Assembly: GCA_012026655.1 (NCBI GenBank)
Contig: JAAILG010001776.1
Location: 1 to 62,041, forward strand
DNA: 62,041 bases
Direction: 5' to 3'
DNA from: Hydrolagus affinis
Taxonomy: Eukaryota
The position numbers and the translations under genes were made by a program. Positions 21,701 through 61,953 of this stretch are shown here, piece after piece (positions within the stretch are counted from its first letter, which is position 1; each line of letters opens with the position of its first letter). The notes under the pieces were generated by a model that was not told the origin of the DNA, did no database searches, and was given only the letters and a program-made list of their open reading frames with translations.

Positions 21701-24700
21701 AATTTGCTGGGAAAACTCATCAGGTCAGGCAGCATCCATGGAAAAGGAAAGTGAGTCTGACGAAGAGTCGTGGACCCGAAACATTGACTCAATTTTCTTT
21801 CTCCATGGATGCGGCCTGACTTGATGAGTTTTCCCAGCAACTTCTGTTTTTGTTTCATATTTCCAGCATCTGCAGTATTTTGTTAAAGCTATAACATACT
21901 TGTTGATAAGACATCTGAAATCTAAGATTGTATACCAAAATATCAGCAAGGCAACTAAATCAAGAAAATTAACAATATACCACAGGTCAATTTAAAAATT
22001 CTAGGCCATATCTCTATGCCAAACTCACAAGAACTGGTTTGTACAAACTGTTGTAAAACTTCAGAACAAACTGCTATCCCGTTGTCAATTTGTATTCAGA
22101 ACATATTGATATCATGATCATGAAAGCATCTACATATTTTGCAGCCAATATAATCTAGCATCCTGTAGGTATCTGTATTGGAAAACTGGTCCCTTGTGTT
22201 TTAACTAGTTAAGCAACTTTCTCAGAGGATCCAATAATTGAATCATATTAAAATAACATTAGTATTCTTATTACAGCATCTGTGCGGTTCCACTCTGTTG
22301 ATGAAATTATTCCCTACAGAGCAAATTATGTTTTACCCAAAAGACAAGTTGTAGCCAAACCATTGCAGACAAGTTAGACAGAAAAACTGTGGGACATCAA
22401 ATTAAAATAAATCTTCGGGAGTGATATTAACAATTCAGCTGAAAAAGATAGAGCATTACACAAGACATCCTACGTCACTAGTGTAGACTATTTGAAATCT
22501 TTCAGATTCACGATTCTGTTTGACGTTTATTCAACCAAGTGCTCAAGACAACTGGTAACAGCTAGTTAGAGTAATTTTCCCCAAAGAATCATAATACAGT
22601 AAAAGCCCGTTTATCCGGCACCCGATCAACCGTAACTTCCGTATAACTGGCTCAAAAAAAGTCCGCATTCGATTAACTGGAATTTATCCGGAAAAATGCA
22701 TTACATTTTTTATTTGCGTTTTCTGCCGAATATCCGGCACAAGCTTTAACTGGCATTGGCCAAGTCCCGAGGGTAAACAGGCTTTTACTAGACTATTGAC
22801 AGCTAAGTGTTTATACAGAGCCTTGATTTACCAACTGATGGAATATTACTCCAAATTCCACAATCTAAAGTGGTAGACAAGAGGGAACCTCAAAGCTCCA
22901 ACTCATCTAAATCTGAGTCCATATACATTCTTGCACATAACTGAACACTCAATGTTCCCATGCTTGCTCTTAGAGTACCAGTGGCCAAGTGATTTAACTT
23001 TTAAGATCCTTATCCCAACTTTCAAATTCACCACACCACACATTCACCGTTCCCTATCTGCTGTGCAATTTATTCTACGCCTTTTTTTCCCCCCTGAACA
23101 TGCTTCATTCAATCTGACAATCTTGATTCCTGTTAATTCCTTTTATCCCACCAGTCTGTCAAACTTTCAAGCATTACACCCCTTCCCTCTAGAACTCAAA
23201 ATGTCAACATCACTTTCTTCCTCCCCATCTTCAAGACTTGTCTTTTTGATTATTCTTTTGATCTCCCTACTGTTAAATGCTCCATTCAATTTTTGTAGTG
23301 TTTTAAATTGTTCATTCTGCATACAGGTCATATATAGGTTTGGTATTTAATGTAATGCAAATACAATAATAACTGTCTAGAATATATATATTTTCAAAAA
23401 TTTCATTCATACCCAAGTCCGAGTCATTCAAATTTGGGAATGATGACAACACATGAGATATGTTTACCACAATTATACACATTGCCTGAGAAATTAACTG
23501 TTACAGTTTCAAAACATGCACACTGATCACTTATTGTAGCACTGAGAACAGATATATTTAAAAAATTGGTATCCTGTTCTACGAGGCAGCAATTAGAATT
23601 TGAAATTTGCTAATATCCAGTCTATTTCAATCAATTACACAAACCCTCATATCTATCCACTGTTTCTACAGTATTGTGAACAGTATTAAGAACCCATTTA
23701 TGTAACAAGTGACCATGCATTTAATGATTAAGACAATCATTGTTAGTCAGACTACCTGCTGCCAACTACCTACCTTCTGGCCAATTAACATTCTGCTCAG
23801 TTTTAATAAAGATACTGTATCCCACTGTTTTATGCATGTTCAACGATTGGTTTTGCTGGAAAAACTCTTACAAATCCTTTAACTCTTATTTTTTTTTAAA
23901 AAGTTGGTACCCACCACATAATGTACATTATCTGTGATCATTCATGTGTTTCACTTTTTTTTAACTGTACCAATTTTCACTCACAAAAATCACAAGATTA
24001 GTTTGGATGAAGACCCTTCTGATGCCATTGCTCCAGAATACCCACACTACCGTCCTCCCACCAGCACAACAAATTATACTTGTATAACGATCTTTTACAG
24101 CGGCAAGAAGTCCCAAGGCGATGGAGAGCATCTAGCTAGTAGTAGGTCTAATATCCTGGCCTCAAGGTGAACCACCCTTATTGGCAACCTGTTGGAATAG
24201 TCAACTACCCTTTTGAGTTACAATAGGACTCGTGGTATTATTTGCGTCAACTTGATCAACCTCCATGGCTAGTCTATAAAGTTTATAAGTTTAAAATTGT
24301 TGTAGCCTCCCTCTTTTTCGTCCTCCACAAAAATAAAATATTTGGGCATCGGAACATTCATTTAAGTGCTCTGAGATGCCGCCTGACGTGGAGGGCACTA
24401 TGTAAATCCAAGTTGTTTAAAAATGTACAAAAAAATCAAGTATATTCCAAGACAATAACGCCTTCAGATAAGAAAGAAAGCACAATCCCCAGAACCAACT
24501 AAGGAGCCTGGTCTGATCACATGCCGTGAATGGGGGGGGGGATCCCCTCAAACTCAATCTATCACTTTCACCCCCCCCGCCCCCCCACACCCCCAACTTC
24601 AACCTTACTTCAGCAGCTCATTGTCTTGTATTCATTCTACCATGACAGGAATCTCCCCTCCCCCCCCCACCACCCCTTTACCTTCACAGTGATTCAAAGT

Positions 24701-61739: not shown

Positions 61740-61953
61740 TTAACCCATCATCTCCCGTCCTCTACCCCACTTTCCCCTTTGTCTCCCTTGCGCTGCCTCT
61801 CCCCCTCTGTTAATCTTTAAAAGCCCCTCCCTCCCAACATGCCCCCAATGACGAATGGCCGTGGACCCGAAACGTTGACTCGCTTTTCCTGTCTCCATAG
61901 ATGCTGCCTTACCTGCTGAGTGTTCCCAGTGACTTCTGTTTTTTGTTGCAGAT
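61740..61953 (+). mobile_element. Penelope-like element end with hammerhead ribozyme motif
   Basis: ATGACGAA-TGGCC-GTG-GACCC-GAAACGTT-GACTC at ~61848-61881, same tail; CT-rich upstream part. Confidence 0.72.

Follow-up and report, generated by a model that had tools for sequence, protein, structure and literature searches.

What left three dispersed hammerhead-like modules in one stretch of the Hydrolagus affinis genome, can any of them still cut, and from what kind of RNA were they copied? The window analysed here is this whole stretch of 62,041 nucleotides, which makes up an entire contig of a 1.11 Gb genome. We put the probability at roughly 80% that the modules are decayed, truncated terminal-repeat insertions of a Penelope-like element (PLE), which carry the hammerhead motif of their family, are inactive at this locus, and were, like most of the family, copied from uncut and capped RNA starting at stem I.

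The initial annotation regarded the modules as copies of a single unit, and their comparison bears this out: copy 1 (21756-21883, plus strand), copy 2 (31476-31370, minus strand) and copy 3 (61849-61956, plus strand) share 81-88% identity pairwise over 95-108 nt (E 1e-23 to 1e-29). They lie 9-30 kb apart in mixed orientation, and a homology comparison within the whole 62-kb window found no fourth core-bearing copy. The proposed length of about 100-130 nt does not hold for copy 3, which spans about 330 nt.

Copy 2 is a 102-nt stub (31368..31469, minus strand) with a short tail; its first base, 31469, falls exactly on the stem I 5' strand. C3 is at 31465 and the predicted cut at 31437/31436 (minus strand). 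Its 10-bp target-site duplications, which differ by one mismatch, lie at 31470..31479 (upstream, abutting the stem I A) and 31358..31367 (downstream), both on the minus strand. Copy 3 starts further upstream. Its homology extends up to 61635, with a 15/16 match over the ORF stop at 61622-61637, so that the end of the ORF and the 3' UTR occupy 61622..61848 (plus strand; last two PLE codons and stop at 61623-61631). Between this stop and the damaged hammerhead with its short tail (61849..61956, plus strand; predicted cut 61876/61877) lie about 220 nt of 3' UTR, which include a TATA-like run (61816-61823). A candidate left target-site duplication at 61615..61624 (plus strand, 10 bp, one mismatch to 61951-61960) is weak. 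A tblastn search with the PLE ORF found no coding remnant of it in the window.

Copy 1 is a compound unit. A forward piece with the hammerhead core and a long tail (21756..21883, plus strand; C3 21757, stem II 21765-21777, GAAA 21778-21781, predicted cut 21785/21786) is preceded by an inverted arm (21698..21757, minus strand), which is a reversed copy of the tail without the catalytic core. Target-site duplications of 15 bp with two mismatches (21687..21701 and 21884..21898, plus strand) enclose the whole unit, arm and forward piece together. The arm starts immediately behind the predicted cut site and is joined to the forward copy via stem I microhomology. We rejected the reading of this junction as a record of cleavage in vivo, because the microhomology accounts for it; such ends are also not significantly enriched in the family. 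An inverted partner was found for 54 of 123 family arms, at 42 of 111 loci. In some complex insertions (L068:522-952 and 2217-2657, L072:4254-4487) each unit comprises a stub, an inverted arm, an ORF piece and a terminal repeat. The arm and the forward piece of copy 1 fold into a 54-pair hairpin (z -13), which spans 21704-21840 and forms on either strand. Intron 1 of the host pre-mRNA would thus carry about 54 bp of double-stranded RNA, a possible editing substrate. Rfam matches to mir-1791 at 21716-21828 are far below the gathering score and reflect only the inverted arm.

Each copy had been credited with one lesion (GTT>ATT, A9>G and C3>A). That every copy is damaged is correct; that the damage is single is not, as each carries at least two lesions. 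Copy 1 has G16.2>A, which breaks the palindrome, one G>A mismatch in stem II, and a stem I out of register. Copy 2 combines A9>G with one G>A mismatch in stem II, while in copy 3, C3 and the stem I 5' strand are missing and stem II bears two changes. The majority of the three does restore the perfect stem II GGGTC/GACCC, as had been claimed, and it equals the genome-wide majority of 68 copies. Stem I (AGUU/GACU) had been attributed to copy 2 only, but a 4-bp stem I is the norm across the family. An Rfam hammerhead match had been suggested as a check; covariance models returned no hammerhead family in the window at E<=10. Core and stems are intact in none of the three window copies, as against 8 of 123 sampled family copies. 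Because of these lesions, at least two per copy, and of the neutral decay of the family described below, we predict from sequence that all three are dead as ribozymes.

Copy 1 lies within the first intron of a minus-strand WW/FF-domain gene, placed by domain and exon evidence, and copy 2 within the last intron of the plus-strand ARL6IP6 (PF15062), the last exon of which is near 36960-37050. Copy 3 lies 25 kb beyond ARL6IP6. We take the WW/FF-domain gene to be PRPF40A-like. Both intronic copies are indeed antisense to their host genes (n=2), which had been ascribed to purging of sense copies; the splice-acceptor-like pyrimidine tract and CAG in the module would give the same bias as ribozyme-based purging. 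The two genes stand head to head (600-25800, minus strand, and 26700-37050, plus strand), with a GC-rich island at 24-27 kb, in the same neighbourhood as in the human genome. Elsewhere in the window, tRNA-like Rfam matches (1089-1158, 29971-30040, 49079-49159, 54382-54451, 56947-57012 and 58598-58653) mark the heads of a tRNA-derived SINE family. This family is abundant, and its bodies and tails account for most of the large repeat families of the window. Further dispersed or inverted repeat families (pairs I2, I14, I16 and I24) occur at 2737-3500, 8057-8300, 22595-22876, 27795-28250, 28790-29080 and 39764-40190.

The modules belong to a very large family. We found 1553 module candidates genome-wide and 1302 matches to an exact 32-nt minimal hammerhead core; two tail patterns of 18 nt each had 4339 and 5759 exact matches (the control gave 0 for core and tails). 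With a per-site divergence of about 5%, the exact tail counts imply some 25,000 arms, and extrapolation of the density in the window gives about 55,000 loci. The copy number is therefore probably 25,000-55,000, and in a family so abundant three copies in 62 kb are ordinary.

The link to a PLE encoding a reverse transcriptase (RT) and a GIY-YIG endonuclease, which the initial annotation had proposed, was substantiated by linkage of module and ORF, by Pfam domains and by relatives. Of 30 ORF-anchored loci, 23 have the module on the strand of the ORF and behind its stop, typically at a distance of 270-300 nt; one of the 30 is the query's own locus, and four of the seven misses run off the retrieved DNA. 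Of five frames scanned, two gave matches, RVT_1 with E 1.5e-6, just under the Pfam cut-off, and GIY-YIG with E 1.9e-5, over the cut-off, the two domains coming from different decayed copies. No PLE domain came up when short decayed frames were scanned with Pfam, and none of the 12 long regions retrieved holds an intact ORF. A zf-RVT match was ruled out as a PLE domain, since it falls in the upstream portion of the L003 frame. Among the relatives, RVT_1 is present and GIY-YIG occurs in some, and the best named matches are shark and ray proteins with up to 64% identity. Two ray proteins named as host genes (P0043 and P0065) match the PLE ORF over most of their length; they are likely to be element pieces annotated into gene models, and possibly cases of exonisation. 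These data support the view that the modules are mutated, 5'-truncated ends of an abundant PLE with RT and GIY-YIG.

The longer copies show how this element is built. One of 3147 bp (L061) carries a direct repeat of 78 bp at its termini and a target duplication of 11 bp, and at two junctions (L068 and L070) the tail runs on into an ORF start, as in a pseudo-LTR (pLTR). The order is thus ORF stop, 270-300 nt of 3' UTR, hammerhead, tail and next ORF start. Translations of L061-L071 show a DKG motif, a C-X4-C-X2-C linker between RT and endonuclease, and CCHH residues. A CX2-5CxxC linker, DKG and CCHH are traits of Neptune/Nematis (PMC8557442), and by the linker the element would be of the Neptune/Nematis type. 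Behind the hammerhead and upstream of the likely ORF start codon stand two motifs resembling splice acceptors, the downstream one immediately adjoining this codon (L068:2170-2260, L061:3560-3640, L070:3990-4080, minus strand). They suggest that the element, like other PLEs, has an intron in its 5' UTR; a donor site for this putative intron was not mapped, and no spliced read was seen.

The reading of the motif as a minimal type I hammerhead was also supported, since the family motif fits the published description of the metazoan PLE ribozyme feature by feature (PMC4209133). It has the core CUGAnGA, GAAA and NUH in order, with an extra base before helix II (1302 exact copies; column counts in 68 copies). 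In the same 68-copy columns, a palindrome at 15.2-16.2 stands in place of helix III, with a self-duplex of -4.1 kcal/mol. Three subfamilies are visible: the window type, a younger and an older one. Relative to the window type, the last stem II pair changes from C-G to U-G in the younger subfamily, and in the older one the first stem II pair becomes A-U and the first stem I pair changes from U-G to U-A. Helices I and II thus differ between subfamilies by one compensatory pair and two one-sided changes. The covariation of stem II named as a check was accordingly found as one compensatory change between subfamilies, which amounts to a single independent event. Where both positions of the first stem II pair were left free, hand counts gave A-T in 40 of 43 A-bearing copies; among the 50 copies with G, 31 have G-C and 16 have G-T. 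A pair count on a hand-picked nine-sequence alignment carries no independent weight.

Genomic copies diverge by 4.0% in the core, 5.1% in the tail, 7.0% in stem II (a value that includes subfamily differences) and 24% at CpG sites. They show no sign of selection, because the core is no better conserved than the tail: genomic copies decay neutrally, and 8 of the 123 sampled copies keep a fully intact motif. The predicted lowest-energy monomer has stems I and II, with the core paired to the palindrome strand in a non-catalytic fold. A C at core position 7 in intact copies (L088, L073 and others) lets the core strand pair with the palindrome strand in the monomer. Nor is the catalytic dimer the lowest-energy form in cofolding, in energy models that do not score the core. 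Going by these folds, pairing of core and palindrome could be a built-in brake on cutting.

The ends of family copies bear on the template from which they were made. We mapped 123 tail-anchored copies from 120 loci, namely 70 of the 4339 and 50 of the 5759 tail matches, taken from the first listed places, on the largest contigs. A few places already retrieved were skipped, eight overlapping loci were merged, and one region (L210) gave no counted copy. As copies were chosen by an exact 18-nt tail match, irrespective of the ribozyme, the sample favours younger ones. The 5' ends of 64 copies lie at -7..+2 of C3, with a peak at -5 to -2, which is the stem I 5' strand, and an edge several bases wide. 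Another 41 are spread over +3..+54 and 18 lie further upstream, in the 3' UTR. The excess of ends at the cut site (+28..+31) is not significant (6/123 versus 2.9 expected, P 0.08), and a hand count of 100 listed copies gave at most two in which unrelated DNA precedes the cut site. The 3' ends form two clusters about 35-40 nt apart, at +95..+104 (44/123) and +131..+142 (49/123). Most family copies are stubs of 80-156 nt with defined ends. Exact target duplications of at least 8 bp flank 7 of 40 simple stubs (control mean 0.3).

A further signal precedes stem I. The non-native base before the stem I strand is G in 52, A in 25 and T in 23 of 100 listed copies (hand count), an excess of G over its 26% share of the flanks (P 1e-8); 10 of the 23 T are decayed native sequence. 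Work on LINEs has linked an extra G of this kind to copying of the cap. We rejected fold-back on the stem I 3' strand as the main source of the extra G, because it predicts T before it in one subfamily and A or G in the other, whereas T was frequent in both (32/47 and 18/27); about 6 of the 47 subfamily A copies fit such an origin. Long copies have a TATA-like run about 29 nt upstream of the stem I A, which itself sits in an initiator-like YYANWYY context, YYANWYY being the initiator consensus. The sequence just before the core is a pyrimidine-rich tract ending in CAG. RNA reads on L068 (two runs, one sample) showed no pile-up of starts or ends and no splice joint, in a library that cannot show 5' ends and from an organism that may differ. 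These reads came from both strands and mostly from dispersed copies in other transcripts, 75% of them running on into unlike sequence.

The template of most family copies was thus likely an uncut, capped element RNA starting at stem I. We envisage that a promoter in the terminal repeat, with the TATA-like run at about -29 and the initiator-like stem I A, would start the RNA at the hammerhead. The element protein would nick AT-rich DNA and prime reverse transcription at either of two sites within the tail. From the front tail copy, synthesis would extend for about 100 or 140 nt before running off the capped 5' end, leaving stubs such as copies 1 and 2; priming on the rear tail copy would give longer, 5'-truncated pieces such as copy 3. 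Inverted arms, as in copy 1, may come from extension of both nicked strands or from fold-back on stem I. The ribozyme of the active ancestor would have been a slow cutter, assisted by the element protein or a second copy, and insertion would not have depended on its cutting. A stem I start is not general, because transcription of Penelope in Drosophila virilis starts about 120 nt before the hammerhead (PMC2377424, PMC4209133). There, a TATA-less promoter initiates 46 nt upstream of an intron of 75 nt (PMC2377424), the end of which lies at helix I (PMC4209133). In our family, the arrangement with a start at stem I would be lineage-specific.

Four other readings of these data have to be weighed. 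The PLE identity could hold while the 5' edge reflects stalling or resolution of the RT at the structured hammerhead, or a 3' splice site, with the extra G added untemplated. This is possible but unlikely. The tract with CAG directly before the core, the D. virilis intron that ends at helix I (PMC4209133) and the width of the edge fit it. Yet a stall is expected on the 3' side of the helices and not behind them, and splicing should leave a shared upstream exon, whereas the flanks are unrelated and the duplication of copy 2 abuts the stem I A; one specific base, G, also fits a cap better than random tailing. We find it quite improbable that the stubs form an independent non-autonomous family, SINE-like or retrozyme-like, that is transcribed and then re-copied by the PLE protein. 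Their prevailing size of 80-156 nt with defined ends would suit such a family, and animal retrozymes have been described as PLE-derived (bioRxiv 10.64898/2026.07.22.740005). However, the stubs are without the upstream TATA-like region and fall into the same subfamilies as ORF-bearing copies, head-to-tail stub arrays were not seen in the loci read, and copy 3 and 18 of the 123 copies continue into the 3' UTR.

The two remaining readings concern function. The very stable hairpin of copy 1, formed on either strand within an intron, might suggest that at least one window copy was co-opted as a working intronic ribozyme or a regulatory hairpin of its host gene; we give this almost no credence, with both intronic cores antisense to the host, lesions in core and stems of each, and inverted arms so common in the family. 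It is also quite improbable, though less so, that the hammerhead likeness is a vestige or due to chance, in a promoter or protein-binding element that never cuts. Copy ends without a significant excess at the cut site and the missing Rfam match in the window speak for such an element. Against it, core, extra unpaired base, stems I and II and palindrome are kept across three subfamilies despite ORF divergence of up to 27% at the DNA level, and a related anole motif cuts with the help of protein, in a reaction abolished by core mutants (PMC11167929).

We thus return to insertions copied from uncut, capped RNA of the element. A fuller version of this reading, to which we give somewhat better than even odds, is that transcription starts at the first base of the ribozyme, so that the hammerhead is the capped 5' end of the mRNA, the stubs are run-off cDNAs in which the cap is recorded as an extra G, cutting serves as a switch, and stubs rebuild the terminal repeat. 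If so, cutting would remove the cap 33 nt into the RNA and act on translation or RNA life, not on the insertion step. The tens of thousands of stubs would then be strong-stop-like cDNAs, an intermediate in rebuilding the terminal repeat. The role of hammerheads in PLEs is described as an open question (PMC8557442), and cutting is dispensable in vitro (PMC11167929). The ends of family copies offer a record made in vivo, of uncut templates, of two internal priming sites, and of a likely RNA start at stem I. They make both the start site and the loss of the cap directly testable with 5' end sequencing.

The hammerhead class is already described, and the three local copies add nothing to it by themselves. 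As in the minimal ribozymes of metazoan PLEs (PMC4209133), the motif is of type I with a 4-bp helix I, an extra unpaired base between 9 and 10.1, and a palindromic 15.2-16.2 without helix III, and truncated PLEs have left thousands of single, dispersed motifs, some of them paired on opposite strands. Unlike those, helix II here has 5 bp and a 3-nt loop; G10.1-C11.1 is reported there as highly conserved, (PMC4209133), whereas in our old subfamily the first helix II pair is A-U. The available text of that paper names no cartilaginous fish and maps neither copy ends nor start site. Our literature search, with subscription journals and repeat databases outside its scope, found no paper on cap-marked stubs or on the motif in cartilaginous fish. 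One cartilaginous fish was sampled for tandem retrozymes (bioRxiv 10.64898/2026.07.22.740005). Non-LTR retrozymes are defined there by head-to-tail units with at least two complete hammerheads, which the window copies do not have; dispersed stubs are not tandem retrozymes.

With Neptune/Nematis the element shares the CX2-5CxxC linker, DKG and the CCHH endonuclease, and with endonuclease-bearing PLEs in general the 5' truncation, an adjacent inverted truncated copy, a tail of 30-40 bp and short target duplications (PMC8557442, PMC3846280). The pLTR of a rotifer element also has a pair of TATA and initiator-like motifs (PMC8557442, PMC3846280). Unlike in endonuclease-bearing Neptune/Nematis elements, (TA)n targeting is not evident in the flanks read, the clade being proposed here from motifs. 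The anole Poseidon element PAc (PMC11167929) differs from ours in that its ORF starts inside stem II, whereas the likely start codon of our element is found about 165 nt behind C3, follows splice-acceptor-like motifs, and opens an ORF with the cysteine linker of Neptune/Nematis. Otherwise PAc is a close parallel (PMC11167929): its hammerhead lies at the junction of pLTR and ORF, both strands are extended, and two internal priming sites define an optional tail, as the two clusters of 3' ends do here. There too, uncut RNA serves as the template for insertion, and no reads are reported to end at the cut site (PMC11167929).
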